Under the pieces are notes generated by a model. That model searched no databases. It was not told where the DNA came from and was given only the letters and a program-made list of their open reading frames with translations. A DNA stretch of 30,137 nucleotides, taken from an uncultured Acidobacteriota bacterium. Lineage in GTDB: Bacteria > Acidobacteriota > Polarisedimenticolia > J045. The stretch is taken from assembly GCA_964484415.1 (NCBI GenBank), contig CAZAHQ010000001.1, positions 1 to 30,137 of the forward strand, read 5' to 3'. The translations under genes were made by a program, and so were the position numbers. Positions within the stretch are counted from its first letter, which is position 1; every line of letters begins with the position of its first letter. Positions 9,969-29,170 of this stretch are shown in pieces.

Positions 9969-10264
9969 GAACCCTGCCTTGGTGAGGATCACAAAAAAAG
10001 TGCCGACCCTGCTCGAGAGCCGACGACCATTGACTCGGTTTGACCAGCAGCGTACCGCCCTAACAACAGACTCCCCTTCAGAGCCGCGGGAGTATACGGC
10101 GCTCCGCGAACTTGACACGATTAAAGAATGGTTAGGCTCAGGCGCCGTTCAGCAACCGCGCCTTGACTGAACTCGAGCGACCCCTCCCGGGCAGGATCGG
10201 AGCGGACGCCTGCTAGGCGCGATCGACCGGCTAACTCCCGGTTTCGCTTGGCATGCTGCCGATC

Positions 10265-10868: not shown

Positions 10869-10968
10869 TGAATAATCTGCATCGCTGTCGCAGCTGCCGT
10901 GCTCGCAGCCTGCCCCCAATACGATCGCGGTAGGCCCCTCGACCGCGGGCTTTGTGCCAACGAGGTCG

Positions 10969-10985
10969 CTGGCGCGCTATCTGCG
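10969..10985 (+). promoter_or_regulatory. Weak candidate sigma-54 (-24/-12) promoter
   Basis: CTGGCGCGCTATCTGCG keeps GG-N10-GC and a good -24 box, but the -12 box is CTGCG rather than TTGCW. It lies about 100 nt upstream of ATG 11087. Confidence 0.3.
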
Positions 10986-11086
10986 CCGTCGGAATGACCT
11001 GGATCATTGGGTGGCCGACGGCCACCTTCGTACAGTCTTTGCGCTGCGATCGAGGTGTCTCTGCTACGCGGCCGGAGGTTGTCCAG

Positions 11087-12196
11087 ATGCTCGCGTCACT
11101 GCTCGCAACCGTACTCATGACAGTTCCATCGGTCATCTCTCCGCAACCCCCCGTGATTCAGGTCGACTGTGACGCCGGGCAGCACCTCGACAAAGCGCTC
11201 CTTGCAGTCCGGAACTCACCTGGGGCGAGGATTCAAATCCGCGGAACGTGTGCCGGGTGGTTCGAGTTGTCCACCGACGCAGTCCGACTCGAGGCATGGT
11301 TGCCCGGACAGGCAACCCTCACGGCGCCTGATCCGGCGCAGCGCGGTAGCGTGCTCACTGTTCGAGATGCCCGTGACGTCATGATTCGCGGGATCCGGTT
11401 CCGACACGGAGGTGATATCGGGGTTGGGTTGATTTTCCTCCGAAGCCCTGGCGGTCAAGTGCTCGAGTGCGAGTTCGAACACAGCGAGGTCGGGGTCGTC
11501 TTCGAGGACTCGCACGATGGAGGGGCTTGGGATATCTGGGCCCACGACAACGATATCGGTCTGAGCAGCGAGTCCGGGGCCTTTGTCGGCATTCACCTGT
11601 CCACCTTCGAGCGGAATCGCCGGAACGGGTTGATTGCGTGGTCAGGCGGCGATCTTCTGCTCGAACGCTCCAAGATCACGGGGAACAGAGAGGCCGGGGT
11701 GGTCGTGATGTTCAACTCCCGCGCGGACGTCGTCGCGTCATCGCTGAACGACAACGGCCAAGTCCACTTGTACGATGGTTTCGCAAGTCAACTTACGGTA
11801 CGTGGCGACGTCGTTGTCGGCAGCCCAGCGGACACCACATGGTACGCGCTCGTAGTCGGTAGAAGCTCGACCTCAGATGTCGGAAACTCTACCTTCTACG
11901 GCAGCGTCCACGTGGACGACAACTCGTTCCTGGATCTCGGCGTGAGTCGTGTTTATGGTCCGATCTTGGTTCAACGATTCGGCCGCGTCTCGCTGTTCAA
12001 CGCCACGGTCACGGGCCCTGCCAACTGCGCTTCGGCCGGTGACCTGATTTGTGGCTACAACACTCATGTCGCCGTCTCGGGCTGTCCATCGGCGACAGAT
12101 TGCTCGCGGGACCTCGCCGGCGAGACGACCACGGTCGCACCAGAGCCCCACTTGATGCCGACACCCTATCAACCGTCGCCTCGTCCTCGCCGCTAG
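11087..12196 (+). CDS. Secreted right-handed parallel beta-helix repeat protein
   Basis: GGAGG RBS at 11074-11078; signal-like N-terminus; IQVDCDAGQHLDKAL...IQIRGTC cap; repeated N-x-x-x-G-I/V beta-helix rungs (DNDIGLSS, RNRRNGLIA, GNREAGVVV). Confidence 0.8.
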   Translation: MLASLLATVLMTVPSVISPQPPVIQVDCDAGQHLDKALLAVRNSPGARIQIRGTCAGWFELSTDAVRLEAWLPGQATLTAPDPAQRGSVLTVRDARDVMIRGIRFRHGGDIGVGLIFLRSPGGQVLECEFEHSEVGVVFEDSHDGGAWDIWAHDNDIGLSSESGAFVGIHLSTFERNRRNGLIAWSGGDLLLERSKITGNREAGVVVMFNSRADVVASSLNDNGQVHLYDGFASQLTVRGDVVVGSPADTTWYALVVGRSSTSDVGNSTFYGSVHVDDNSFLDLGVSRVYGPILVQRFGRVSLFNATVTGPANCASAGDLICGYNTHVAVSGCPSATDCSRDLAGETTTVAPEPHLMPTPYQPSPRPRR

Positions 12197-12547: not shown

Positions 12548-13402
12548 GTGCCGGAATCCGCTCAGAACCCGCTGGCGCGCCCACCGTCTCCTGTGGTCGC
12601 GAGCGACCTACCCGCCGAGATTCATGTCCAAGCGGTCTACTACGAAGGGCGAATCGACCTGCCGCAGTTTCGTGCACGACACCCGGAATATCCGGTGCTG
12701 TCGCTTGACCCAATGGTCGTGGAGTTGGTCGCCGGCCGTTACGTCGCACTGACGAAGTTCGGGTCTGTGATCTTCTGGAACTGCCGGCGCAGCGAGATCG
12801 ACGCCGTTCAGCACGACATCGCCGTCCTACCGGGTGCGCTCGAACGCAACCTCGAGGTGTCCGACGAGTTGGTGGTCTTGGTTGGGCAGGACACGAACCT
12901 CGTCACATTCAAGGAGGTTCGGCTGCGTCAACTGACGGTCGATCAGGTGTCGATTATCTCGCGCGCCCTCGGCCAGTCGGTGGCACTCGAGCGATTCGAG
13001 AACGACGTGCAGGCGGCACTCGCCCGCTCACAGCCAGTGGTGCAGGCGTTGCGCTCGCGCGGCGAGTTGATCCAGACGCAGCGCGAGATTCTGCAGACGA
13101 TCGGCTTCGCGCTTCACGTGCGCGCCGCCGTGCTATCGAACTTGACGCTGTTCGACTCTCCTCCAGAGGCCTGGGAGAGCGAAGCGGTCGCACACATCGA
13201 TGCGCAACTTTGGGACTACTTCGACCTCGATGAGCGATTGTCGGCGATCAACCAAAAGGTGTCGTACCTCGCCGACCTCAACGGCACGCTTACAGACCTA
13301 CTCAATCACCGCAAGAGCCAGCGGCTGGAGTGGATCATCATCGTGCTGATCGTGATGGAGATTCTCTTGTTCGTCGTGACGGAGCTGGCGCGTAGGACTT
13401 GA
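12548..13402 (+). CDS. RMD1 / DUF155 family protein
   Basis: KFGSVIFWN, ISRALGQSVALERFE, WDYFDLDERLSAINQKV, RLEWIIIVLIVMEI C-terminal TM helix. GTG start. Confidence 0.9.
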   Translation: MPESAQNPLARPPSPVVASDLPAEIHVQAVYYEGRIDLPQFRARHPEYPVLSLDPMVVELVAGRYVALTKFGSVIFWNCRRSEIDAVQHDIAVLPGALERNLEVSDELVVLVGQDTNLVTFKEVRLRQLTVDQVSIISRALGQSVALERFENDVQAALARSQPVVQALRSRGELIQTQREILQTIGFALHVRAAVLSNLTLFDSPPEAWESEAVAHIDAQLWDYFDLDERLSAINQKVSYLADLNGTLTDLLNHRKSQRLEWIIIVLIVMEILLFVVTELARRT

Positions 13403-13470
13403 GAGTTCATTGGGCGCAAGTTTATTGGGGTATCGAGTCACCGGTTCGTACACTAGGTTGCGATAGAAGA

Positions 13471-14481
13471 TCACGATCGCGCACGCCGGCGCATCTGCAA
13501 CTCGCGCCCGCCGTCTTCGTACTTCACCTCGTCCATGAACTCGTTGATCAAGAATATTCCACGTCCGCTGGTCTTCATCAGCCCTTCCCTGGCCCGCGGA
13601 TCTGGAACGGCATCGAGATCGAAACCCTGGCCGGGGTCGCGCACGACCACCAACAGCTCGCCGTCCTGTTCGACCGCGACGCAGCACTGCACGCTCTTCG
13701 TCGGGTCGTTCTTGCAGCCATGCTTGATGGCGTTGGCGATCGCTTCGTGCAGAGCGATCTCGACCTCAACCTCGTGTCCCACCGCGCACTGCTTGTCCTT
13801 GATGAGCTGCATCATTCCGGCAACGACGCCCGGCACCGCGCGCTGGTCGGCGGAGATAGTGATGTCGAGTTGGCAGGTTCTGCAGATTGGTACGAGGTTG
13901 CTCAGCTTGTGAACCTGATCGAGTGTCTCGCGAAGATCCACCACCAGCCGCTCCCGATCCAGGTCTGCCGCTTCGCGTTCCTCGAGCGCTTCACGAAGTT
14001 CGCCGAGGTTCCGCCGCAGTTTGAGTTGAGCCATGACCTGACGGCGCAGCGCTTCCAGCGCCTCCACCTGCTGCGCGGTGAGCGTTCTAGGTTGCTGGTC
14101 GATCACGCAGAGCGTGCCGAGCGCTTCGCCCTCGCGACTCAGCAGTGGAGCGCCCAAGTAGAAGCGGATGTGTGGATCGGAGGTCACGAGCGGGTTGCCG
14201 CGAAATCGTTCGTCGAGCATTGCGTCGGGGACGATGAACAGGCCGGGCTGCCGGATGGCATGCGCGCAGAAGGCGATGTCGCGCGACGTCTGGCTGGCGG
14301 AGATCCCGACGCGCGACTTGAACCACTGCCGGTCCTCGTCGACGAGGCTGATGAGTGCGATCGGCGTATTGCAGATCTGCGATGCCAGGAGCGTCAGATC
14401 ATCGAAGGCGATTTCTGGATCGGTATCGAGAATCCGATAGGCGTGCAACGCCGCCAGCCGTGCCTGCTCGCGATTGTCCAT
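13471..14481 (-). CDS. GAF-domain sensor fused to an RsbW-like (HATPase_c_2) anti-sigma Ser/Thr kinase domain
   Basis: EQARLAALHAYRILDTDPE..FDDLT.LASQIC..PIALISLVDEDRQWFKS GAF; coiled coil; IALHEAIANAIKHG (N box), VRDPGQGFD (G1), SGRGIFLI (G2). Confidence 0.9.
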   Translation of the reverse strand: MDNREQARLAALHAYRILDTDPEIAFDDLTLLASQICNTPIALISLVDEDRQWFKSRVGISASQTSRDIAFCAHAIRQPGLFIVPDAMLDERFRGNPLVTSDPHIRFYLGAPLLSREGEALGTLCVIDQQPRTLTAQQVEALEALRRQVMAQLKLRRNLGELREALEEREAADLDRERLVVDLRETLDQVHKLSNLVPICRTCQLDITISADQRAVPGVVAGMMQLIKDKQCAVGHEVEVEIALHEAIANAIKHGCKNDPTKSVQCCVAVEQDGELLVVVRDPGQGFDLDAVPDPRAREGLMKTSGRGIFLINEFMDEVKYEDGGRELQMRRRARS

Positions 14482-14770
14482 GGTGCATCCCCGGCATGCT
14501 GCCGGATGGACTGTACATGATTTCGACCCTCACGCGGCCGCGAAACGCGGCCTCTTGTCGCTCGAGCGCCTGCGCAACGTTAGGGCGGTTTCTCGACTCT
14601 CGGGGGTAGTGCTGATGGGCATGGTGCTATCGGTGGTGTTAGGAAAGCCACGGCGAAGCCGATCCTGAAAGCACGAAGGCGGGCCCCATCCAAGAGACCC
14701 GCCTCGGTAGATCTTATCGAGCGCGACGTAACAGGTTTCGCGCGTCGAACGGTTGCACTCGGTATTGCCC

Positions 14771-15214
14771 TTAGTCCTCTTCTACCTCGACCTCAGCCTT
14801 GACCCCGGGCGTCTTCTTGTCGTCGTCAGGCAGTTGACTTCCCTCGAGCTCGACCTTGTTGTCGGCGTTGTCTTCGCGTGTGATCTCGACTTCCTCGAGC
14901 TTGCCGTCGCTGTGCTGCACCACCGTCACCTCGACCTTGGCACCCTCGCGCTCGACAACCTTGATCTCCTTCACAACCACGACGTGATTGTCGTGAAGAA
15001 GTTCCCAGCCAATCGCCAGGCCGACCGGCACGACCCAGAACGGCCGCCCTGCGATCATGCGAATCGCGACGCGGCGACGATGACGCCGGCGAATGCGACG
15101 ACGCACGCGACGGCGATGCCGGCGAACGGGTCCCGCCTCCGCGTCGCCGACAGAAAACAGCGATGTCAGGCCAAGCGTGGTGGCGCAGGTCAGTACGAAT
15201 GTTCGACGATCCAT
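14771..15214 (-). CDS. Small Tat-exported protein with Arg-rich N-terminus and acidic C-terminus
   Basis: GAGGAG RBS; MDRRTFV twin-arginine motif, hydrophobic stretch and AEA cleavage site; then RRHRRRVRRRIRRRHRRR. Confidence 0.75.
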   Translation of the reverse strand: MDRRTFVLTCATTLGLTSLFSVGDAEAGPVRRHRRRVRRRIRRRHRRRVAIRMIAGRPFWVVPVGLAIGWELLHDNHVVVVKEIKVVEREGAKVEVTVVQHSDGKLEEVEITREDNADNKVELEGSQLPDDDKKTPGVKAEVEVEED

Positions 15215-15448
15215 CGGCCTCTCCTCGATCTCGACCACCCGTGTCAGCGACGACTCACTCGACCGCGTCTGGATGGCTAGCAGTCAGAAGATTGGGTCTT
15301 GGATGCACACCGATCAAGGGGGTCGAGATCGGCGGACGATCGGCCGCTTTGAGAGTCCAGGACTTTGCTCTCTGAGCTCGGGGCACGAAAGTTCAGCGGC
15401 CGGAGGCATAATCCCACCCGCCACTATGCCCGCCCGGAATGATCCGCC

Positions 15449-16831
15449 ATGAAGGCAAGCAATCGGAGTACGGCCTCGCCACGAACCATCTTGATCGTCG
15501 ACGACGATCCTGACGTGCGCTCTGTGCTCGACCAACTGCTCTCCCCGCACTTCGAGCTGCTTGGCGCCCACGATGCCGCGTCGGCGTTGATGCTCGCACG
15601 GAAACACCAGCCAGGCGTCGCCTTGCTCGACCTGCATCTCGGTGACGGACCCGATGGATTCTGGTTGCTCGAGCGACTCAAAGCGCTCGACCCCGCACTC
15701 CCAGTCGTCATTCTGTCGGTCGATCGCGATACGGAAACGATCGTGCGCGCCATGAAGGCCGGCGCTGCCCACTACATCGGCAAGACGCCGCGTTATGACG
15801 AGTTGCTCGAACGACTGCGGCTCGCGTTCGACGAACGCGGTCGAGCGATGCAACTGGAAGCGCATCGTCTGCCCGAGACGGCGGAGATTCTGGGTGACTC
15901 ACCTGGAATGATCGAGGTACGCCGACTACTCAAGCTGGCCGCCGGCTCTGAACTTCCGCTCGTGGTTTTGGGAGAGACCGGCACTGGGAAGGGTTTGGTC
16001 GCCAGGGCCACGCATCTGGCCAGCACTCGGCGCAGCGGACCGTTTCGCGATGTCAACGTCGGCGGGCTCCCGTCGTCGGTGCTCGACAGCGAGCTGTTCG
16101 GTCACGAACGCGGCGCATTCACCGGCGCCGAGCGTTTGCGCCGCGGATTGTTCGAACTCGCGGCCGGCGGAACGATCCTCTTGGATGAAATCGGCGACCT
16201 GCCACGCGATTCTCAAGTCAAGCTGCTGAAGGTCGTCGAAGAGGGGCGCGTACATCGGTTGGGCAGCGACGACGACGTGCAGACGGATGTCCGGGTCGTA
16301 GCGGCGACTCATCGTGACCTGAACACCATGATCGCGCAGGGAGCGTTTCGCGCCGACCTGTTCCACCGCTTGGCAGGCTTGGTAATCGAGATTCCGCCGT
16401 TGCGATCACGCCGCGAGGACATCCCGATCCTGACCCGTCATTTCGTGGGGGACGAGTGGGAGATCGCACCGACGGCAATCGACCAGCTCATGGCCCACGA
16501 CTGGCCCGGCAATGTACGCGAGTTGATGCATGTGATGCGCCGCGCCACTTTGTTCGCGCACGATCGCATCATCGGTGGTGAGCAGATTGCGATCCACGAG
16601 ACCGGCAAACGAAGCGATGCGGGCGCGGAACGCGCCGTCTACGCGTTGCCGTATCACGACGCGTCGAAACAAGCCCTGGACCAATTCCGTCGACGCTATG
16701 TCGAGTCGCTGTTGGAGCGCTGCGGTGGAAACGTGTCGATGGCTGCCCGCGAGAGCGGAATTTCGCGAGCCCACCTGCACGCGATGATCGCTGAACTAGG
16801 ACTCAAGTCGCGCGACGGCGATCTCGAATGA
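15449..16831 (+). CDS. Sigma-54-dependent response regulator (NtrC family; REC-AAA+-Fis HTH)
   Basis: ILIVDDD, LLDLHL (phospho-Asp), GETGTGKG, ELFGHERGAFTGA, LDEIG, FRADLFHRL, WPGNVREL, GNVSMAARESGISRAHL. Confidence 0.97.
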   Translation: MKASNRSTASPRTILIVDDDPDVRSVLDQLLSPHFELLGAHDAASALMLARKHQPGVALLDLHLGDGPDGFWLLERLKALDPALPVVILSVDRDTETIVRAMKAGAAHYIGKTPRYDELLERLRLAFDERGRAMQLEAHRLPETAEILGDSPGMIEVRRLLKLAAGSELPLVVLGETGTGKGLVARATHLASTRRSGPFRDVNVGGLPSSVLDSELFGHERGAFTGAERLRRGLFELAAGGTILLDEIGDLPRDSQVKLLKVVEEGRVHRLGSDDDVQTDVRVVAATHRDLNTMIAQGAFRADLFHRLAGLVIEIPPLRSRREDIPILTRHFVGDEWEIAPTAIDQLMAHDWPGNVRELMHVMRRATLFAHDRIIGGEQIAIHETGKRSDAGAERAVYALPYHDASKQALDQFRRRYVESLLERCGGNVSMAARESGISRAHLHAMIAELGLKSRDGDLE

Positions 16832-19800
16832 TGCGGCGAGTCGTGCTGTGGGTGATCAGCGCGGCGCTCTTGGAGTTGTGGGCCGGATCGGTGCGTGCGC
16901 GCGCAGAAGCACCGGCGCCTGCTCCCGAACGAGTCTGGGAACTCGATCTGGACGACTCGGCCGAGGCCTCACGCTGGCAGTTGCTCGATGAACCGCTCAA
17001 TCCAGGGACAATCCGCTGCCGCCACGAGTACGCCTCGCTCGACGGCAAGACGGCGACCGGCACGCTTGTATTCGAAGCAACTCCCGGCATCGGCGCGGCG
17101 AGCCTGACCACCGTCTATCGCCCGTTCCCACCCGACTTCTTTTTGACGCCCAACAACTCCTTCGTTCTGGACTGGTCATGGGAACTGGCCGACACACGAT
17201 TGTCCGATGGGGTCGCGATCGGTTTGGTGATGCAATCCGACCGCGACGGTTCGTTCGAGCGGAGTCCGGTGGCGATCAGTCATACGCGATACACGATCGC
17301 GTGGCGCGTCCTCTTCGATGCGGCCGAGACCTGGTATTCGCATCGGATCGGACTCGGTCAGGAACGGTTCGCGGCGAGTTACGCCAAGGCTCAGCGGCCG
17401 ATCGGCGTCTTCTTCGCATTTCAAGATCCGGTCGCTCAGCGCCTGCGCGTGTCCAAGCTGAGGCTTGAGGCGTGGCCGGCTGGCGCCGTCGATACCGATC
17501 CCCTGTTGGATCCACATCGATTGACTTATGACGAGCGACCTTTCACCCCTTCGATCCCCTCCACGACGACGGCGGCGACCACGCTCGCTGCGGAAGATCT
17601 GGATGGCGATGGCCTGCCCGAGCTGTTGTTGGCTCAACATCATGATTTCGTGCACGTGTGGCGCAACGACGGACACGGTGAGTTCGTCGACGACATCACA
17701 GAACCGGCGGGACTCGTCAGACGGATGATCGCTACCGGCGCGCTGTTCATCGATATCGATCGCGACGGGGACCGCGATCTGGTTCTGAGCGGGGAATTCG
17801 ATGTCCCGATCCTGTTCGAGAATCGCGGCGGTTTGCGCTTCGAGCCGGTGGCCTTGGAGAGCGATCGAGCGCTCGGTTTTTGGTATGGCTGCGCCGGATC
17901 CGATTACGACTTGGACGGCAACATCGACCTTGCGTGCACCACCGCCTTCGGTGCCCCTGGAACAACCTTGCTGCAACAAGCCGGTCCAAAGCACTGGCGC
18001 TCGATCGTACCCTCGGGGTGGGCGGGCGTTTCAACCGCAACTACCAGTGGCTTCGCCGCCGCGTGGGGTGATCTCGATGGCGATCACTATCCCGAGTTGG
18101 CGTTCGGGCGCACGTCCGTCGCGCACAATAGTGTTGGGGTTCTGCAGTCGCCTGAGATGCTCCCAACCCCCGTCACCTCACCGGAAGAAGTCGAGGGACA
18201 GGTGTTCGCCGATTTCAACGCGGATGGCACGCTCGACCTGGCGGTGCTCCGCGACATGCCTCGCAACACGGGCCAGGTCTTGATGCTGTTCAACGGCGAT
18301 GGACAGGGCGGCCTGCAGGAATCGCCGACATCGCATGAAGCGCTCGACCTGAGTGAGGCGGAAGTTCTGCTCGCGGAAGACTTCGATAACGACGGTCGAC
18401 TCGATCTGTACATCTGCCGCGAACATCTTCCCAATGTGCTGCTGTTGCAAACCGCTGCTGATGATTGGCGGGATGCCAGTGAGCTTTCGGGGCTGGCCGA
18501 TCAAGGCGGATGTGCGGGGGCGATCGCCGCCGACTTCGATGGCGATGGTCGGCTCGATGTGGCGATTGCCAGCTATGCCGAGTCGCCTCGGCTGCTTCGC
18601 AATCATCTGGCGAGTGGCCACTGGATCGGTGTGTCTGTATTCGATCGTGCGGGCGCAGACGCCGTCGGCACGCGTATCGATCTGATCGACACCGCGACAG
18701 GCAAACGACTGATGACACGTTGGCTGGAGCGAGGTCAAGGGTTTGGTTCGAACGGCCCGGCCGAGAGGCGCTTCGGCTTGGGGACGCGAACCAGCGCGCT
18801 GATTCGTGCCACGTATCCCTCGGGTGCGATACGCGAGCGCACCATCTCGGACGTCGACCAGAGCGTCACCCTTTCAGAGCCAAGCGATGGACCCCTTGCT
18901 CATGGGTGGAGCCGGCTACGCGAGATTCGCAGCGATATCACCCGCGAGTTCCGCCGGTTTGCCTTGGCCCAGCCGATGACTCGCGTCGCGATCGTGACCG
19001 TCGGACTGGTTGCCGGGTTTCTGATCGTGAGTTGGCGCCCGATGCGATGGTTTTGGTTGTCGCTGTCGGCCCTAGTGGTGGCGCTGAGTTTGATGCTGGG
19101 CTCAGTCCCGGGCCGCGGACTCGGCGGATGGGCTGCGGGGCTATGGGTTTCGGGCCAACTCCTCGGCGCCGTGATCCCGTCCCTCGCAACGATCGTGGTC
19201 CGCGGTGGGCGACGACTCTCGCGTGCCGGAGCGCGGAGTGGATCGCGCGAAGAGCTGATGCGCTGCTCGATCGATTTCCGGCATTCAGGCAGCGAGGCTC
19301 GTGCGCTGATCGCGATTACGGCTCGGCTGCAGAACCTCTTCATCGACGGACGGCTTCACGAGCAGTTCGTGATCCAGTTGCGCGAGCTGGCGGCGGCGCA
19401 CCGGCGTATGTCCATAGCGCGGCTGTCGCAACTGATCTCGCTCAGCGAGCTGGTGCTCGAGAATGCTGAAGAACCGGGCCAACTGAAACGTTCCTCGCGC
19501 CAGGTCGCCACGCTGCTCGCCGAGTTGGATTCGGAGCGACCGCGAACGGATGAGCAGTGGGGTCGCTGGCGGGCCGAGCTGCTCCCACTACTGGATACAC
19601 ATCGCGAGAATGTCGCTGCACTGCTAGCGGCGATCGACCGTCAGGCATCACTTCCGATCCTCGAGGTTCGCGACCTGGTTGAGGCCGCCTGCAAGGAGCG
19701 ACAAGCGCTGATCCCGATCGAGTTCGAGCCGGGGGCGCGGCACCAAGATCGTGCCGTGCAGGTTGTGATCTCGCCGATCGCGCTGACAACCGTGTTGGAT

Positions 19801-20127
19801 GTGTTGCTCGACAACGCGCTCGAGGCGGCACGACCAAATCAGCGGGGAGCAATACTGGTTTCGCTGACGGTCCTGCCGCGCGAGGTCGAGCTCGCCGTCG
19901 AAGACGATGGCGTTGGAATAACACCCGGCACGGAAGCGGAAGTGTTCAAGTTCGGCGTCTCGTCTCGACCTGCGGGTGGTGGGTATGGACTCCCCCGCTC
20001 GCGTGAGCTACTGGCTCATTACGGCGGGCGGCTCGAGCTACGATCGGCTACACAGCTACGCGGGGCGCGATTCATCGTGATCCTGCGTCGTAGTCTGATC
20101 GGCCCGACAGGTGTGCGGTCAACCTGA
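16828..20127 (+). CDS. Atypical membrane sensor histidine kinase: N-terminal beta-sandwich, 7 FG-GAP/VCBS repeats, ASPIC/UnbV, about 3 TM helices, HATPase
   Basis: Signal peptide; seven DxDxDG repeats (EDLDGDG, DIDRDGD, DYDLDGN, GDLDGDH, ADFNADG, EDFDNDG, ADFDGDG); ASPIC/UnbV-like LRN...HWIGV...AVGTRI...GFGSNG...RFGLG...YPSG; N box LDNALEA, G1 VEDDGVGI, F/G2 VFKFGVSSRPAGGGYGL. ATGA overlap with the regulator. Confidence 0.85.
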   Translation: MMRRVVLWVISAALLELWAGSVRARAEAPAPAPERVWELDLDDSAEASRWQLLDEPLNPGTIRCRHEYASLDGKTATGTLVFEATPGIGAASLTTVYRPFPPDFFLTPNNSFVLDWSWELADTRLSDGVAIGLVMQSDRDGSFERSPVAISHTRYTIAWRVLFDAAETWYSHRIGLGQERFAASYAKAQRPIGVFFAFQDPVAQRLRVSKLRLEAWPAGAVDTDPLLDPHRLTYDERPFTPSIPSTTTAATTLAAEDLDGDGLPELLLAQHHDFVHVWRNDGHGEFVDDITEPAGLVRRMIATGALFIDIDRDGDRDLVLSGEFDVPILFENRGGLRFEPVALESDRALGFWYGCAGSDYDLDGNIDLACTTAFGAPGTTLLQQAGPKHWRSIVPSGWAGVSTATTSGFAAAWGDLDGDHYPELAFGRTSVAHNSVGVLQSPEMLPTPVTSPEEVEGQVFADFNADGTLDLAVLRDMPRNTGQVLMLFNGDGQGGLQESPTSHEALDLSEAEVLLAEDFDNDGRLDLYICREHLPNVLLLQTAADDWRDASELSGLADQGGCAGAIAADFDGDGRLDVAIASYAESPRLLRNHLASGHWIGVSVFDRAGADAVGTRIDLIDTATGKRLMTRWLERGQGFGSNGPAERRFGLGTRTSALIRATYPSGAIRERTISDVDQSVTLSEPSDGPLAHGWSRLREIRSDITREFRRFALAQPMTRVAIVTVGLVAGFLIVSWRPMRWFWLSLSALVVALSLMLGSVPGRGLGGWAAGLWVSGQLLGAVIPSLATIVVRGGRRLSRAGARSGSREELMRCSIDFRHSGSEARALIAITARLQNLFIDGRLHEQFVIQLRELAAAHRRMSIARLSQLISLSELVLENAEEPGQLKRSSRQVATLLAELDSERPRTDEQWGRWRAELLPLLDTHRENVAALLAAIDRQASLPILEVRDLVEAACKERQALIPIEFEPGARHQDRAVQVVISPIALTTVLDVLLDNALEAARPNQRGAILVSLTVLPREVELAVEDDGVGITPGTEAEVFKFGVSSRPAGGGYGLPRSRELLAHYGGRLELRSATQLRGARFIVILRRSLIGPTGVRST

Positions 20128-20202
20128 CAGGTGAGTTCGTCGCGTCGAAACCGATCTGGTCTCTTTGCAGTGCGTTAGCAGTCGTCGCGAGCTTGATCGG
20201 AT

Positions 20203-20219
20203 ATGGCACATGGGTTGCT
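20203..20219 (+). promoter_or_regulatory. Sigma-54 (-24/-12) promoter
   Basis: ATGGCACATGGGTTGCT is near-consensus TGGCAC-N5-TTGCW. Predicted start site about 20230, immediately before RBS GAGGAGGA (20231-20238) and ATG 20245. Confidence 0.8.
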
Positions 20220-20244
20220 CTTCGCGCGTTGAGGAGGAGCCGCT

Positions 20245-20808
20245 ATGCCCAATCAGTCGAGACACAAACTCAAGGCCACGCGCGGGGCGATGATCGCGCT
20301 TTGCGCACTTGCGACCATTGTCGGCGCTGGGTCGTCAGGTTTCGCTGGGAAGTACTTCGAGGAGAAAGAGCCGGGGCAACAACTCGCGGCCAGTGAATCC
20401 GACGCCGTCGTCTACATCATCCGCAGCACGCACATGGGTGCGTTGATTCACTTCTGGACATTCGCCGATGAACAGCTCCTCGGCGTGACGCACGGCAAGT
20501 GCTGGAACGTCGCGCGGTTGCCGGCCGGAACGCACGTGCTCTGGGCCAAAGCCGAGAACGTCACAGCGATCACGCTGACGGTCGAGGCCGGTAAGGTCTA
20601 CTACATTCATCAGCTCGTAGTGCCCGGCTTCGGGCGTGCGCGCACACGACTTGCACCGATCGACGAGGCGGAAGGGATGAAGCTGCTCGCCAAGATCGAT
20701 CGTCAACTCGTGCTCACGGACGAAGCGCGAAGCAAGGGCGCCGAGATCTCCGCAGAGCACCTCGAACTGGCTCGCAAGCGAGCCGCTGCGAAGGAGCAGG
20801 ACCAATGA
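20245..20808 (+). CDS. Secreted/periplasmic DUF2846-like protein
   Basis: Strong RBS; signal peptide; VVYIIR...LLGVT...LPAGTHVLWAKAEN...LTVEAGKVYYI pattern typical of DUF2846-like beta-sandwich proteins. Confidence 0.75.
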   Translation: MPNQSRHKLKATRGAMIALCALATIVGAGSSGFAGKYFEEKEPGQQLAASESDAVVYIIRSTHMGALIHFWTFADEQLLGVTHGKCWNVARLPAGTHVLWAKAENVTAITLTVEAGKVYYIHQLVVPGFGRARTRLAPIDEAEGMKLLAKIDRQLVLTDEARSKGAEISAEHLELARKRAAAKEQDQ

Positions 20809-21434
20809 TCAGGCCGTTCCGAAACCGTCGAATCGTGCGTTACCTGGTTACCGTGTCGGCGTGCGTTGCATCGCTGGTCTCAGCCGCTCTCGCAGAAGGC
20901 GGTGTTGTGCGCTTCAGCGTGCTGCGATTCTCTCCGACCGGCGATTGGCAGGGGCGATTGATTGGCGAGAACGTCACCGTGGAAGCCGACAGCGCGGTCG
21001 GCGCAGGTTTGAGCTACGAGCTTCGTCCGACGCACCGCTGGGGTGTGGAAACCGCGATGTCGCTGGCGGACGTCGACTTCAACCTCTCGGTGAGAGGCGC
21101 TGGAAGCGCCAAACTTGGATCGGCACTGCTGCTGCCGCTGACATTCGGCTTGAATTTCCATCCCCTGCCGGCCAAATCGCGAACCGATCTGTACGTGGGC
21201 CCGATGCTCGGCTGGGTGTTCTGGGGAAATCTCAGGACCGATTCGGGAGACGTCGAGGCGGATAGCGAATTCACGCTGGGTGCACAGGTGGGCGTCGCGA
21301 TCGCGTTCTCCTCGAAGTCACGCTGGTCGTTCGACGCTGCAGTTCAGTACCTTCGCTTCCCGCTGGCTGACCAGTCGATCTCGGTCGATGTCGACCCGTT
21401 TGTTCTGCGCGTGGGGCTGGCGTCGCATTTCTGA
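20805..21434 (+). CDS. OmpW-family outer-membrane beta-barrel protein
   Basis: Signal peptide; alternating beta-strands; LPLTFGLNFHP, LYVGPMLG, LGAQVGV, WSFDAAVQY, VDVDPFVLRVG; terminal Phe. ATGA overlap with the upstream gene. Confidence 0.85.
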   Translation: MIRPFRNRRIVRYLVTVSACVASLVSAALAEGGVVRFSVLRFSPTGDWQGRLIGENVTVEADSAVGAGLSYELRPTHRWGVETAMSLADVDFNLSVRGAGSAKLGSALLLPLTFGLNFHPLPAKSRTDLYVGPMLGWVFWGNLRTDSGDVEADSEFTLGAQVGVAIAFSSKSRWSFDAAVQYLRFPLADQSISVDVDPFVLRVGLASHF

Positions 21435-24034: not shown

Positions 24035-27000
24035 TTACGGTGTTGCCGGTGTTGTCTGCTGCACGTCGGCCGGCTTCGTCGTTGTGACGTCGAGCACGCC
24101 CCACATGCCGCCTTCGAGTTGTGTGTCGCCGACTTCGCGCATCAACCACGAGCCGATATTGCTGTCCTTGCTTCCTGCCCCGTAGTTGATTACGAGGTCC
24201 TTGTGAATCGAGACCGATAACCCGGCGATCGCACCCAACGTCATCGAGGGTGTGAACGATGGTTCGTTCGGGAAAGTGTGGCCCGCCAGTGCGAACGAGT
24301 GCTGGCGTGCCCTACCATCCGGCTGAAGGATGCGCAGTCGAACTTTTTCACCACGCTGCGCAGTGAACTTCGGCGTCTCGGGAGTTCCGTTGAAGCTCTG
24401 GAATACGTCGCGTTGCTGTTGCAGGTTGAGCACGCAGTACGGGTCGTTCACACAACCTGCGATACGCGACCAGAACGGCTCGGTCTTGTAGCTCCAGGCG
24501 CGATTGCCTTGATCTTCGGGATCGGCCTGACGGCACGCGTTGACTCCCGGTGGAACTGGCGGGTGGAAGCCGAGGAAAACTTCGTTATCCGGAATGCATC
24601 CGCCCCCTGTGGCGTAGTTTCGTAGGTTCAGGCCGTCTTGATAGAACAGGACGAAGTCGCGGAAATCGGTATTGCCGGAGCCAAGATTGGCCTTCATCAA
24701 TACGCCCTGCCCATGCCGCGGGTAGTTCCCTCCTGGTGGATTGTCATAGCCGGGTGGTTCAAGGATCAGACCACCGATCAATCCTTGCGACCCGTGCTTC
24801 ATGACGTCGCCGTAGTCGCGTAGGTTGGCTGCACCGAGCGATTCAGGGCCGGCGACCGGAATACTTCCTGGATCGCGCGGAGCGCTGAGGTCGGTCGGCA
24901 CGTACCAGCGGTAGGTGTAAGCGTGGTTGCGCCGTACGGTCTGATCGGGATTGAAGCCGACGGCGGTCCCGTCTCCAGTGCGTACGTTGAAATCAGCCAG
25001 TTGCGGGTGGAGCGAAACACGACGCGAGGGTCGCAGGTCGTCGGCGTTCATGCTGACGATTCCCGGGAAGACTGCATCGTCATTGCGATCCGGAATATTG
25101 CGGGGCAGTCGATTGGTAAGCCTGACCGCCAGACACTCACCCGGATTGGCACGAATCACCAACGGCTCCGGTGCTTTCAGCCCAGCCTGCACCGCTGCAA
25201 CATCAGCATCCGGCACAAAGACCAGACCGGTTGGATCCTTGATGCTCTCGCGACCGTTGTACGTGATTGACTTGGCAATCGCTGTCACAGGAACTGAGAT
25301 CACCGGTGCCGTACCCGGGCACGGACTTGGATCGGTTGGGTTTGGCGACAGGCAGGAGTAGCCGGTTGATACCGGGTCTTGGTAGGGCACTGCTGGCAGC
25401 GATGCACAGGTACTCCCCGGGAGTGGTTTCAACTTGGTGTGACAGTCTTTGTACACACGGAGCATTCCCCAATCACCGTTCCACAGATCGTCTGCGGCTT
25501 GTCCGCCGAACAGATAGTCAGAGAAGCACTGCCGTCTGCGTTTGCGCTCGGTGTAGCGGTTCTCGGGATTAGGTTCACGCGCGTTCTCGTACGTATCGAC
25601 TTCATCACCAGCGTCGAGCTTGTTGAACAGCGTGCTGTCGGTGTAGATGCGGTCGACCGCCTGGTCGGCCTTGCTCACCTTGTTCACTGTGCCGTCGGGC
25701 TCGAGTTCGGTATCGAGACGCGCGTTGAGAGCCCGCTTGACCGCGTCTGGCCCAGGATCGGTCGGATCGGTAACGGCCAGGGCAGCCAAGGCACCATCGG
25801 TGGTCTTGTCAGCCGTGAACGGACCCATCAGGTCGAGGCGTGTTTCCCACGCCATCTCGTCCATCTCCGCATCCGTGATGCGGCGCGTGGCCGGGCAGGC
25901 GTAGGGTGCGCGAGCAACGAACTCGAAATGCTCCGAGATACCGACCGCTTGTGCTGCACGGTACCCTGACTTCGGTTCGCTCGGCTCGAACGGCCAGCGG
26001 AAGCCGTTGATGGCGAACGAATGCTGCTCCTCTTGAGCACCCTGAATCAGTCGGAACTTGACTGAGTCACCTTCGTAGGCCATGAACAGCGGCGTCCATG
26101 GGTCACGCCCTTGCACGCAGCTGGAGAAGACATTCGCCATGTCTCCCTTGGCGCCGCCCGCCTGGGTCGCCCCATGGTCGTTGGAGATACGCAACGGGAT
26201 TGGATCGTTGCGATAGTTGAGTAGCATCGATCCCGGGTCCTCGGACGAAAGTGCTTCGGGGACGTCGGGAGGATTGATCGGATTGCCGTTACTGTCGTAC
26301 AGCAACGCGAAATCGGCGATGGCAAGCGAGTACTCGCGGAAGTGGTCGAGTTTCTTGTCTCCGTCGATGTCACCGCTTCCACCGATGATGATGTCGGCAT
26401 CAGGACGCGTCGGACCACCGTCCGAGGCGCGTGTACCGAGCTGCGTACCGGTATACGGATCTTTCCAGATCGTCGGGGTGGCCAGGCTCGTGACCGGCTC
26501 GATGATCAGCGCGCCATAAAAGCCGTGCTGCTGAATCGTCGAAGCGCCGAAGTGATCGTGCGTGAATACGGTACGCAGAGTTCGGTCGAGACCGCCTTTG
26601 TTGAGAAGCGGATCGGCATACCAGCGCTGCACCGTCGTCTGTGCACCAAGCGCTTCCATACCGGCCAATCCCGGGAACGCTGGATTGTTGACCGGGGCAT
26701 AGGTTGGTGTTCCGAGGAATGCGTTGTAGGCATTGATCCGCTGTTGAACCTCCTCATTCGAGAAGGTGCCGTCCTCGTAGTTCCATCCGTTGCCCGATCC
26801 ATCCGACGCAGTGACATCGAACTTGACCAAGTGTATGTGCTGGCCGATGGTGTCGGTCGGTAGACAGACCTGGAAAGCATCCTCCTTGAGCTCGGTGGGC
26901 GTGAGATTGGAGTGATGGAAGTTGATGCACTCGCCTGAATTTGCGCGAATGAAGAATGGATCGGCCTTGACGGAGTCGTTCGCCGTCCAGTGCATGCGAC

Positions 27001-29101
27001 CAGCGCTCGTTCCGGCGCTCGTAACGAGAGCCGTCACGTCGTCGTTGAGAACGTTGAGGCGCCCCTGTGCGTCGTGCCACTTGTCCTCGTTGGCGCGCAG
27101 GTTGATTTGAATCGCCGCCGCACGATACTCGCGCGTTGGTGTGCCCGCTGGACAAGGATCGGCAAACGGTGCGCCGCCGATGGCCGGCCGACCGTTGACT
27201 TTGAAGATCGCTCCGGTAGTGGTGCCATTGGGATACTGCGTAGGGAAACCCGCTGCGGTAGCGTGGAAGGTCATTGCACCCTGCTCGAGCGTGGTTCCTG
27301 CGGTCGGGATCAGCTTGAGGTTGGCCTTCTCCCACGACTGACAGAACATCAGGTTCGGATCTTGCATGTTGTTTGCCGTCTTGTTTCCGCTCAGCACGAT
27401 GTGCCGCGGCAGTCCGCCGGTTTGTTCCAGATCGAGCGGAGCTTGCGGTGGACGATGGCCGGCCACAGCGCCCGCTGCACCGCCCATGAAGAACGGATAT
27501 CCCGGCACTGTCGCGGTCGGCCACGGAGCGAGCGCCACACCAGGGATCGGCATGACTGCCGGATTCGGTGTGCCGCTTGGATAGGCGACCGTATCTCCGT
27601 CGGGTAGGTTGCGCGACGCCGAGCCATCCTCGAAGACATCGTGATTGCGCCACAACTCCCACATCCCCTGGGCAAAGTGTGGATACAGATGGCAATGGAA
27701 GATCGCATCACCGACGGTTCGGTTTCTGTTGCCGCCGCCGCCCCACATGATGTCGTAGTCATACGCGGTTCCCGGCCCGACGGTTTGCGAGTCGAGGTAG
27801 GTGCTGTTGTCACCGAGTCGTTCGTGTAACCACTGATGGGCGTGCAAATGGAAAATGTGCGTTTCGAACGGACCGGCGTGGAGATTGCGGAAACGCACCG
27901 GATCGTTGATGTACGAGTGATGAACATTCGAAGGGTCGCTCGGGAACTGCGTGAGCAGCGCCGGATCGCCATTGGCCCACGAAGTCAGGAAGAACTCCTC
28001 ATAAACACATTCCGGACAGTTCTTGGCGGGCCCCGTATTGTTCATCTTCGACAGCAGGATCGGGCCGATGCCCGACGAGCCGTAGTTGATGCCGAAGCCA
28101 TCGCGCGTCGGATGGAAGCGCTTACGATTCTCTTCTGTGCAGGCAGGGATCTGACCGGCGGGATAGGGGCCGCCTTCTCCAGCCGGATTGAGTACGCAGT
28201 AGTTGTGAACCGTCTTCAACTCGTCATGGAAGATCACAACGAACTCGCGAAACTTCCCGCAGCTCGCTCCAGTCGGCACCGTCGTGCAGTCTTGGTTGAC
28301 GTTGTCGATGATGGCGTTGATCTCGGAGAATCGGATCTTGTTCGTGCCGTCGAGAATCTTGACGATCGGTTTCGAGGCCGCATCCAGCTTGTTGTAGTCG
28401 AACGAGTAGACCAGCGGGTTCTTCGTTACGAGCGTTCGCACCGAGTTCATCTCGGAGCCGGTCAACTGGCTGCGATACCAGATCGATCCCGCAGGCTCGA
28501 CCACGATGGTGCCGAACAGTCCGTGCACGGTGCTACCGCCGTCCCCTTCACCACCAGCAAGTGCCGCTTGGCTATAGACCAGGTAGCTCCCTTCCTTGTC
28601 GGCGTACCAGGAATAAGTGATCGGCGTATTGCTCGGCGCGATCGTGGTATTGGCATTGCTCCCGGCCCAGCCGCCGTCGGAAGCGGTGTCGTAGACCATG
28701 CCGTTGACGTGCATCGATGCCCACCGATCGGCGGGGGCATCGGTACTGGGTGCCGGGGACTTGAGCCAGTTGTAGAACGTGACTTGCAAGCAGTCACCGA
28801 CGTTCGCTCGCAGTACAAGCGGCCGAGGTCGTTTGCTCGAAATGAGTTTGGCGTTGCCCGGCCCGGGCACGGTGCCCGTAGCGGCAACGACGTCCTCCTT
28901 CAGGGCGTACATCATCCCGACCGGGTTGATCGATCCGTAGCGGTTGTAGGTGATCACCTGGTCGAACGCTACGACATCCGCTCTGACGGTACGCAGTGCA
29001 GAGTTGCAGCTCGCGGTGGCGGCGTGCTCGGCCGTCGTGGTCAGTCCCACGACCGCGAGTAGCCCCAGGGTCCAACGCATGATCGGTGGTCCATGGCGCA
29101 T
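24035..29101 (-). CDS. mnxG: Large multicopper oxidase, MnxG-type (putative Mn(II) oxidase)
   Basis: 1688 aa; strong GGAGGAGG RBS; signal peptide. Cu motifs HIFHLHAHQW (aa ~415), HCHLYPHFAQGM (~469), HIH (~755), FTHDH (~848), in the permuted order I recall for MnxG. Further degenerate cupredoxin motifs (MHVNG, QHSFAING, SLHPQL, QHSFALAGH). The symbol is a family-level call. Confidence 0.85.
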   Translation of the reverse strand: MRHGPPIMRWTLGLLAVVGLTTTAEHAATASCNSALRTVRADVVAFDQVITYNRYGSINPVGMMYALKEDVVAATGTVPGPGNAKLISSKRPRPLVLRANVGDCLQVTFYNWLKSPAPSTDAPADRWASMHVNGMVYDTASDGGWAGSNANTTIAPSNTPITYSWYADKEGSYLVYSQAALAGGEGDGGSTVHGLFGTIVVEPAGSIWYRSQLTGSEMNSVRTLVTKNPLVYSFDYNKLDAASKPIVKILDGTNKIRFSEINAIIDNVNQDCTTVPTGASCGKFREFVVIFHDELKTVHNYCVLNPAGEGGPYPAGQIPACTEENRKRFHPTRDGFGINYGSSGIGPILLSKMNNTGPAKNCPECVYEEFFLTSWANGDPALLTQFPSDPSNVHHSYINDPVRFRNLHAGPFETHIFHLHAHQWLHERLGDNSTYLDSQTVGPGTAYDYDIMWGGGGNRNRTVGDAIFHCHLYPHFAQGMWELWRNHDVFEDGSASRNLPDGDTVAYPSGTPNPAVMPIPGVALAPWPTATVPGYPFFMGGAAGAVAGHRPPQAPLDLEQTGGLPRHIVLSGNKTANNMQDPNLMFCQSWEKANLKLIPTAGTTLEQGAMTFHATAAGFPTQYPNGTTTGAIFKVNGRPAIGGAPFADPCPAGTPTREYRAAAIQINLRANEDKWHDAQGRLNVLNDDVTALVTSAGTSAGRMHWTANDSVKADPFFIRANSGECINFHHSNLTPTELKEDAFQVCLPTDTIGQHIHLVKFDVTASDGSGNGWNYEDGTFSNEEVQQRINAYNAFLGTPTYAPVNNPAFPGLAGMEALGAQTTVQRWYADPLLNKGGLDRTLRTVFTHDHFGASTIQQHGFYGALIIEPVTSLATPTIWKDPYTGTQLGTRASDGGPTRPDADIIIGGSGDIDGDKKLDHFREYSLAIADFALLYDSNGNPINPPDVPEALSSEDPGSMLLNYRNDPIPLRISNDHGATQAGGAKGDMANVFSSCVQGRDPWTPLFMAYEGDSVKFRLIQGAQEEQHSFAINGFRWPFEPSEPKSGYRAAQAVGISEHFEFVARAPYACPATRRITDAEMDEMAWETRLDLMGPFTADKTTDGALAALAVTDPTDPGPDAVKRALNARLDTELEPDGTVNKVSKADQAVDRIYTDSTLFNKLDAGDEVDTYENAREPNPENRYTERKRRRQCFSDYLFGGQAADDLWNGDWGMLRVYKDCHTKLKPLPGSTCASLPAVPYQDPVSTGYSCLSPNPTDPSPCPGTAPVISVPVTAIAKSITYNGRESIKDPTGLVFVPDADVAAVQAGLKAPEPLVIRANPGECLAVRLTNRLPRNIPDRNDDAVFPGIVSMNADDLRPSRRVSLHPQLADFNVRTGDGTAVGFNPDQTVRRNHAYTYRWYVPTDLSAPRDPGSIPVAGPESLGAANLRDYGDVMKHGSQGLIGGLILEPPGYDNPPGGNYPRHGQGVLMKANLGSGNTDFRDFVLFYQDGLNLRNYATGGGCIPDNEVFLGFHPPVPPGVNACRQADPEDQGNRAWSYKTEPFWSRIAGCVNDPYCVLNLQQQRDVFQSFNGTPETPKFTAQRGEKVRLRILQPDGRARQHSFALAGHTFPNEPSFTPSMTLGAIAGLSVSIHKDLVINYGAGSKDSNIGSWLMREVGDTQLEGGMWGVLDVTTTKPADVQQTTPATP

Positions 29102-29153: not shown

Positions 29154-29170
29154 TGCAACAACGATGCCCA
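29154..29170 (-). promoter_or_regulatory. Sigma-54 (-24/-12) promoter of the multicopper oxidase
   Basis: Minus strand TGGGCATCGTTGTTGCA: GGCA-N6-TTGCA with exact GG-N10-GC spacing. Predicted start site about 40 nt upstream of ATG 29101. Confidence 0.65.

Follow-up and report, generated by a model that had tools for sequence, protein, structure and literature searches.

The 30,137-nucleotide stretch analysed here (the window, taken over its whole length) is one 30.1-kb contig of a metagenome-assembled genome of an uncultured Acidobacteriota bacterium (845 contigs, 81.7% complete). Its DNA recurs in activated-sludge and wastewater runs. It carries a gene for an NtrC-type response regulator of 460 residues (15449-16831; open reading frame call and Pfam) followed by a gene for a sensor kinase of 1099 residues (16828-20127; open reading frame call and full-length relatives). 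Both lie on the forward strand, as do all features described below unless stated otherwise. The stop codon of the regulator gene, which is the upstream gene, overlaps the start codon of the sensor gene as ATGA at 16828-16831. A preliminary description of this DNA had placed the pair at 15449-20127 with an ATGA coupling, and both reading frames and the overlap are indeed found there. From its N-terminus the sensor consists of a signal peptide, a β-sandwich, a β-propeller, an ASPIC sandwich, three transmembrane (TM) helices, a five-helix module and a HATPase domain. We consider it quite likely that regulator and sensor work together as a two-component system, one that is both unusual and rare, in which phosphate would be relayed through His819 of the sensor to a sigma-54-dependent output.

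The preliminary description had read the sensor as a CRTAC1/ASPIC-type propeller fused to a kinase and had proposed that it defines an unusual sensor class. The fusion is real and conserved. All sensor domains are present in seven full-length relatives (1087-1106 residues, 36-96% identity), P0003 is a 96%-identical copy from another assembly, and the architecture was found, at a length of 1041-1198 residues, in many independent samples. An exhaustive search with residues 790-1099 returned 44 proteins at E ≤ 1e-10; in ~25 of them (counted as clusters at 50% identity) the match extends over the entire cytoplasmic module. Among 27 whole-module relatives, FG-GAP_3 is detected in 18 and UnbV_ASPIC in 15 (E ≤ 1e-3, best 1.9e-11). 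Contigs of three separate studies run across the domain boundaries and show neither indel nor joint, one extending from the propeller to the TM helices (17784-19208), one from the propeller through the TM helices into the helical module (18355-19663) and one from the end of the ASPIC domain through the kinase (18817-20300). The architecture is thus kept across relatives, and the sensor class proposed in the preliminary description exists. As judged from sequenced genomes, the family is rare. When one genome per species was scanned with two peptide patterns, the matches listed included one full-length relative, from a metagenome-assembled Acidobacteriota genome, and of 400 genomes sampled from the phylum to which the window belongs, none has the full module. 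Where the source annotation names the relatives at all, it calls them only 'signal transduction histidine kinase'.

Residues 1-26 (16828-16905) are predicted to be a signal peptide or N-terminal anchor, with a hydrophobic segment at residues 4-23 followed by RARAEAP. Residues 27-715 were modelled with AlphaFold2 from an alignment of 27 relatives, giving a mean predicted local distance difference test score (pLDDT) of 89.6 and a predicted template modelling score (pTM) of 0.89. The model contains a β-sandwich (residues 35-216), a propeller (250-590), a second sandwich (598-683) and a helix (689-714). The N-terminal β-sandwich (residues ~35-216, 16930-17475), delimited by the model and by invariant columns, is modelled as all-β with block-mean pLDDT values mostly of 80-95, and its residues W37, W50, W116, W118, W159, W169 and W216 are invariant within the close family. 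No fold family could be assigned to it with either a protein-atlas feature search or Foldseek; the one lead is a weak resemblance to carbohydrate-binding modules, with feature scores (0.75-0.77) that lie below a meaningful level. A galactose oxidase-like combination of sandwich and propeller was considered and rejected, as the Foldseek alignments that span both have a root mean square deviation (rmsd) of ~19 Å.

The propeller has seven blades of the FG-GAP/VCBS type (residues ~250-590, 17575-18597) and is identified by Pfam (FG-GAP_3, 105 bits; FG-GAP, 53.9 bits), by its loops, by the model and by its match to CRTAC1. It is followed by an ASPIC/UnbV C-terminal β-sandwich (residues ~598-683, 18619-18876). 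By sequence this domain is marginal, UnbV_ASPIC scoring 21.3 bits over residues 612-680 against a Pfam cut-off of 23.4. Its fold confirms the assignment: it falls inside a 430-residue structural match to CRTAC1 (model residues 213-660). Among solved structures, the ectodomain is matched best by that of murine CRTAC1 from crystals (9etn, Foldseek E 5e-23), with Z 36.5 and an rmsd of 2.9 Å over these 430 residues at 20% identity. Generic seven-bladed propellers (LGI1, integrin α chains) reach Z 28 or less, and the top three model matches among reviewed UniProt (Swiss-Prot) entries are mouse, human and Xenopus CRTAC1. The CRTAC1/ASPIC-type label first given to the ectodomain is therefore borne out by its fold.

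Seven Ca-type loops are placed ~50 residues apart in the propeller (at residues 257, 309, 359, 415, 462, 518 and 569; 17596-18549). They had been described as exactly seven DxDxDG repeats. The number is correct, and the exact DxDxDG motif is present in five of them, the other two being DxNxDG and DxDxDH. The preliminary description had further proposed that the propeller binds a ligand or surface, probably in a Ca-dependent manner. The Asp residues of the loops show the same invariance in secreted relatives lacking a kinase, so that the loops look fold-stabilising; they are probably structural and not the part that senses the signal.

Unlike those secreted relatives, the sensor is not a soluble protein, since its ectodomain is followed by three TM segments and a cytoplasmic kinase. 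A stalk helix (residues 689-714) leads into TM helices at 717-737, 742-762 and 772-791 (together 18892-19203; hydrophobicity, model and conservation). Arg-rich stretches follow the first and third TM segments and thus place the C-terminal part of the protein in the cytoplasm. The short periplasmic loop between TM2 and TM3 has a PGRG sequence (residues 761-764, 19108-19119) that is invariant in the close family.

The cytoplasmic part ends in a catalytic ATP-binding domain (HATPase_c, 19648-20097) that is identified by Pfam (50.6 bits, residues 983-1087), by conservation and by fold. All of the nucleotide-binding boxes are conserved: N996 (N), D1026xGxG (G1), F1040 (F) and GxGxGL at 1050-1055 (G2). 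The domain superposes on the catalytic ATP-binding domains of solved kinases with Z ~18-19 and an rmsd of ~2 Å. In an AlphaFold2 model of residues 794-1099 (pLDDT 89.4, pTM 0.85), the helix formed by residues 795-820 continues from TM3 and has His819 at its end. A Ser-Gly kink separates it from a helix at 822-835, which is followed by a short loop and by helices at 845-876, 882-901 and 908-939, before the ATPase domain begins. We distinguish a His-bearing helical hairpin (residues 795-876, 19210-19455; model and conservation) from a second hairpin (residues 882-939, 19471-19644; profile alignment and model), and it is to the second, in which no histidine is conserved, that ordinary kinases align their dimerization and histidine phosphotransfer (DHp) domain and H-box. 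A profile of the family aligns the DHp domains of ZraS and FixL to residues 870-940.

The His819 codon (19282-19284) lies within DFRH819SG (19273-19290). The preliminary description had pointed to this residue as a lone candidate and had asked whether it is conserved. In 30 diverse cytoplasmic modules, with identities down to ~20% and including a Reg_prop subfamily, it is present in 30/30 and is the only invariant histidine. The motif around it is [DE]-F-x-H-[SAG]-G, and 90% or more of the 30 sequences also keep F817, N836 and L837. The subfamily with the motif EFGHSG carries Reg_prop repeats in place of FG-GAP. Since the same module occurs with FG-GAP and with Reg_prop propellers, it is older than either fusion. 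No Pfam or NCBIfam family describes the helical module. A shape search of the ESM Atlas with the cytoplasmic model returned only ordinary HisKA kinases, at a TM-score of ~0.5 over 160-194 of the 306 residues, and showed no large cluster with the whole module.

The regulator contains a receiver (REC) domain (15488-15817; Pfam Response_reg, 73.6 bits), a sigma-54 AAA+ domain (15887-16387; Sigma54_activat, 195 bits), an AAA+ lid (16403-16591; AAA_lid_14, 57.7 bits) and a helix-turn-helix domain (16688-16777; HTH_8, 27 bits). The alignment with orthologues locates the acceptor Asp61 (codon 15629-15631) and the GAFTGA motif (residues 222-227, 16112-16129). The regulator is 53-63% identical to five orthologues from other samples, and D61, K112, the other REC catalytic residues, Walker A and GAFTGA are invariant in the six sequences. 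A REC domain with its acceptor Asp, a sigma-54 AAA+ domain with GAFTGA and a Fis-type helix-turn-helix domain are the hallmarks of an NtrC-type enhancer-binding protein. The regulator scores 343 bits with the NtrC model and 311 bits with the PEP-CTERM regulator model of NCBIfam; it stays below every NCBIfam equivalog cut-off tested (NtrC, AtoC, PrsR, ZraR). By these sequence comparisons it is an NtrC-class activator and none of the named ones. With Asp61, the REC residues and GAFTGA intact, it needs a phospho-donor.

We predicted the complex of two copies of the cytoplasmic part of the kinase with residues 1-135 of the regulator. The kinase-REC score was 0.57 (best control 0.00), which the tool grades as weak support. 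Of 80 solved complexes, 58 reached the mark applied to such scores, as did 2 of 110 mismatched pairs; among those passing, 7 of the 80 solved complexes and both of the mismatches scored ≤ 0.60. In this weakly scored prediction, helix 1 of the REC domain (residues 20-30), residue 91 and the loop 112-116 contact kinase residues 824-847, that is, the stretch directly below His819 and the start of the next helix. Known kinase-regulator complexes have the same layout of REC contacts.

The gene order is conserved as well. A sigma-54 regulator gene adjoins the kinase gene in 11 of the 12 distinct loci examined. It lies upstream, overlapping or abutting the kinase gene, in the window and in L001/L002, L005/L006, L007, L008, L009, L018, L065 and L067, and downstream in L064 and in L063, which holds a Reg_prop member. 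In the window, a predicted sigma-54 promoter TGGCAC-N5-TTGC (20204-20218) begins 77 nt past the kinase stop codon, and 26 nt separate its end from the next ATG. No other zero-mismatch copy of this sequence, which has GG at -24 and GC at -12, occurs in the window. The site is conserved in the loci of relatives: wherever a locus has a regulator gene and the intergenic spacer that follows the kinase-regulator pair was recovered, this spacer contains GGCAY-N5-TTGC. Comparison with relatives also revealed two direct copies of CCYGACAGGTG (at 20103 and 20123, 20 nt apart; 20103-20133) that straddle the kinase stop codon, which we read as the candidate enhancer of the regulator. The relatives have CCTGACA-N2-4-TGTCAGG ~70-100 nt upstream of their promoter.

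Behind the promoter lies a probable output operon (20245-21434; Pfam and translations) that consists of a gene for a DUF2846-like protein (20245-20808) and a gene for an OmpW-like outer-membrane β-barrel (20805-21434), which overlap by 4 nt and were both assigned with Pfam. The same pair stands behind the promoter in L005/L006 and L065/L066. In L009 a DUF2846 gene is found downstream and the contig ends there; L018 has reading frames of the same size, which were not scanned with Pfam. The genes behind the promoter differ in other loci. They encode proteins of 307-361 and 800-850 residues without known identity in L007 and L008, a TIG and RHS/YD-shell repeat protein of 1910-1928 residues in the P0009 locus (L001:11466-17198, L002:8374-14160), and a β-helix protein, directly behind the sigma-54 promoter of the kinase, in L067. 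Judging from their sequences, the products in the different loci would be mostly envelope or secreted proteins, and the same sensor-regulator pair seems to drive quite different secreted cargo across lineages.

Some of these loci have further features. Opposite the gene of the relative P0008 (L003:11252-19045), eight genes form a convergent operon that opens with a GGCAY-N5-TTGC site and a gene for a small receiver-like protein and closes with an OmpW-like barrel gene; a PmrAB-like OmpR pair and an EptA-type transferase are encoded upstream. L064 (2540-8246) has tandem FG-GAP and HATPase_c kinases (778 and 1081 residues) before a single sigma-54 regulator, and at position 10144 of that locus there is a stand-alone receiver gene with a GGCAC-N5-TTGC site ahead of it. 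The window itself has a second site, GGCAT-N5-TTGC, on the reverse strand (29155-29168), upstream of a gene for a 1688-residue protein without Pfam match (24035-29101, reverse strand). Directly upstream of the regulator gene are reading frames of 373 (13399-14520) and 175 residues (14753-15280), likewise without Pfam match, and a right-handed β-helix (NosD-like) protein of 414 residues is encoded at 10952-12196, 3 kb upstream of the regulator-sensor pair. A consensus scan found no sigma-70 promoter for the regulator-kinase operon, and no RNA run was found to contain the window stretch.

Is His819 the residue that accepts the phosphate? We think this fairly likely on the basis of conservation and modelling, because the acceptor pocket of the regulator is intact, because His819 is the only invariant histidine and because the receiver is predicted to dock next to it. 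Several observations weigh against a conventional relay through this residue. No Pfam H-box family (HisKA, HisKA_2, HisKA_3, His_kinase and SPOB_a were considered) matches the sensor at E ≤ 1 or the helical modules of 10 members of the family at E ≤ 10. The module search also retrieved 56 ordinary kinases, and in the 19 whose alignments reached their H-box, the H-box His lies at profile positions 85-102 (19/19) and never at position 26, which is that of His819. His819 is therefore located 60-75 residues upstream of the canonical place, not at the position homologous to that of the ordinary phospho-His. The statement that it is a lone candidate without a canonical H-box holds, with this displacement as a refinement. 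In the sensor family the canonical position falls where the third helix meets the fourth, and no histidine is conserved there. His819 is separated from the N-box Asn996 by 177 residues, and this distance is ~105-120 residues in well-known kinases. It is not followed by an acidic residue (H-S/A-G). The docking score is weak, and, as solved kinase-regulator complexes exist, the prediction may recall them. Finally, the relative P0008 lacks an adjacent regulator (1/12 loci).

Some of these points could also mean that the sensor is not a histidine phosphorelay kinase at all. It would then control the regulator or another target with no phospho-His involved, either as a binder (pseudokinase or phosphatase-like) or by phosphorylating Ser/Thr as kinases of the PDK/BCKDK or anti-sigma type do, with His819 in a structural role. 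The missing H-box match and the empty canonical position fit such a protein, as does the monomer model, which packs the five helices on the ATPase domain (pTM 0.85). PDK4 and BCKDK are among the fold matches, with 227-229 residues aligned in the case of PDK4. The alignments that include the helices, however, have an rmsd of 13-14 Å and only the ATPase domains superpose (Z ~17), which makes it improbable that the helical bundle is of the PDK/BCKDK kind. With its ATP-binding boxes intact, the sensor is not a dead ATPase. Furthermore, a purely structural His819 does not sit well with its invariance across two subfamilies with different ectodomains, with a partner that keeps its complete phospho-acceptor pocket or, more weakly, with the predicted REC docking site beside this residue. 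We regard the loss of histidine kinase function as unlikely.

A different question is what the ectodomain senses. The signal could be free Ca2+ or another divalent metal, with the occupancy of the seven Asp loops setting kinase activity. The seven Dx[DN]xD[GH] loops are present, their Asp residues are invariant, and the closest fold relatives are the propellers of CRTAC1 and integrin α, which bind Ca2+. Yet the same loops are just as invariant in the secreted relatives without kinase, as expected of structural sites; the Trp-rich sandwich at the N-terminus and the PGRG loop, both outside the propeller, are what is specific to the family, and the output genes (OmpW-like barrel, DUF2846) suggest no link to metal homeostasis. 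A metal signal thus appears quite improbable. A further alternative, that the sensor is an artefact, either of a chimeric assembly or of the loss of a stop codon that once separated a kinase gene from a gene for a secreted CRTAC1-like protein, draws on the fragmented state of the metagenome-assembled genome. It is contradicted by the recurrence of the architecture in many independent samples, by P0003 and by the contigs of three studies that cross the junctions without indel or joint. We give it almost no credence, and misassembly or a lost stop codon is ruled out as far as sequence data can show.

For the two-component reading, which we prefer, we suggest the following sequence of events. The periplasmic part, made up of the N-terminal sandwich and a CRTAC1-type module (Ca-loop propeller and ASPIC sandwich), would bind a glycan or another macromolecule of the envelope or surface as our best guess, Ca2+ only holding the fold. 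The signal would pass via the stalk helix and the three TM helices into the five-helix module and its intact ATPase. Phosphate would be accepted most likely on His819, on the helix that continues from TM3, and phospho-His819 would hand it to Asp61 of the adjacent NtrC-type regulator. Binding of the regulator to the CCYGACAGG repeats, where the kinase gene ends, would then turn on the sigma-54 promoter (20204-20218), and with it most likely the production of the DUF2846-like protein and the OmpW-like barrel.

What we find most interesting, and what the preliminary description only touched on, is that the only conserved histidine is displaced upstream of a DHp remnant that has none. The transmitter departs in this respect from the rule that the phospho-His is part of the hairpin directly before the ATPase. 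Tentatively, and with slightly more doubt than confidence, we propose a separate class of transmitter in which the phospho-His has moved to the membrane-proximal helix and a His-less DHp remnant precedes the ATPase, and which is used specifically with sigma-54 activators and with ectodomains that are very large propeller proteins (CRTAC1-type or Reg_prop). If His819 is the acceptor, the definition of a histidine kinase becomes wider, and this would explain why annotation shows a bare HATPase_c only. If the class is real, these receptors would be the first setting in which genetics can show what a CRTAC1-type propeller binds. CRTAC1-type proteins with FG-GAP and ASPIC domains are widespread in bacteria and animals, and we know of no biochemical function established for them. 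Where such an ectodomain is coupled to a kinase, a regulator and a defined promoter, its ligand can be sought through a genetic read-out. The output wiring also gives two uncharacterized envelope proteins, the DUF2846-like protein and the OmpW-like barrel, a regulatory context.

We found no published description of the FG-GAP/ASPIC/HATPase architecture in the literature searched, in agreement with the preliminary description, which likewise cites none. The mention of FG-GAP in a paper on CrdS/CrdA was considered as a precedent and dismissed, as it concerns a neighbouring gene. Propeller inputs on kinases as such are already known in another form (Reg_prop, BT4663).

Several known systems come close to the sensor in part. 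CRTAC1/ASPIC and the bacterial proteins with FG-GAP and UnbV_ASPIC share with it a propeller with Asp loops followed by an ASPIC sandwich. CRTAC1 and most of its bacterial relatives are secreted and have neither membrane span nor kinase, whereas the sensor has an additional N-terminal β-sandwich, three TM helices and a kinase. The Bacteroides hybrid systems (BT4663, PDB 4a2m) resemble it in using a large periplasmic propeller as kinase input, and the sister subfamily of the transmitter module carries Reg_prop repeats as the BT4663-type systems do. However, their propeller belongs to another family (a Reg_prop double propeller) without FG-GAP loops or ASPIC domain, and 4a2m, which is among the Foldseek matches of the ectodomain, is a poor one (rmsd ~28 Å). 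The BT4663-type hybrids combine HisKA, REC and AraC output in one chain.

On the cytoplasmic side, the closest systems are those of the NtrB/NtrC class (ZraS/ZraR, AtoS/AtoC, PrsK/PrsR), which likewise have a sigma-54 promoter beside the pair. The ATPase of the sensor is most like those of DcuS/MalK, PrsK, AtoS and ZraS, ZraS being the best solved match by sequence. In NtrB/NtrC-class kinases a HisKA H-box immediately precedes the ATPase, and the sensor domains are of the PAS type or otherwise small; in the sensor described here, the place of the H-box is empty, the conserved His lies 60-75 residues upstream and the ectodomain is β-rich and comprises 690 residues. A working analogy for the displaced His may be drawn with CheA, which has its phospho-His outside the hairpin directly before the ATPase, this hairpin being DHp-like and without His. 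Pfam detects no Hpt, H-kinase_dim or CheW domain in the sensor, and its His-bearing helices, unlike those of CheA, run on without a break from the membrane span into the remainder of the module.

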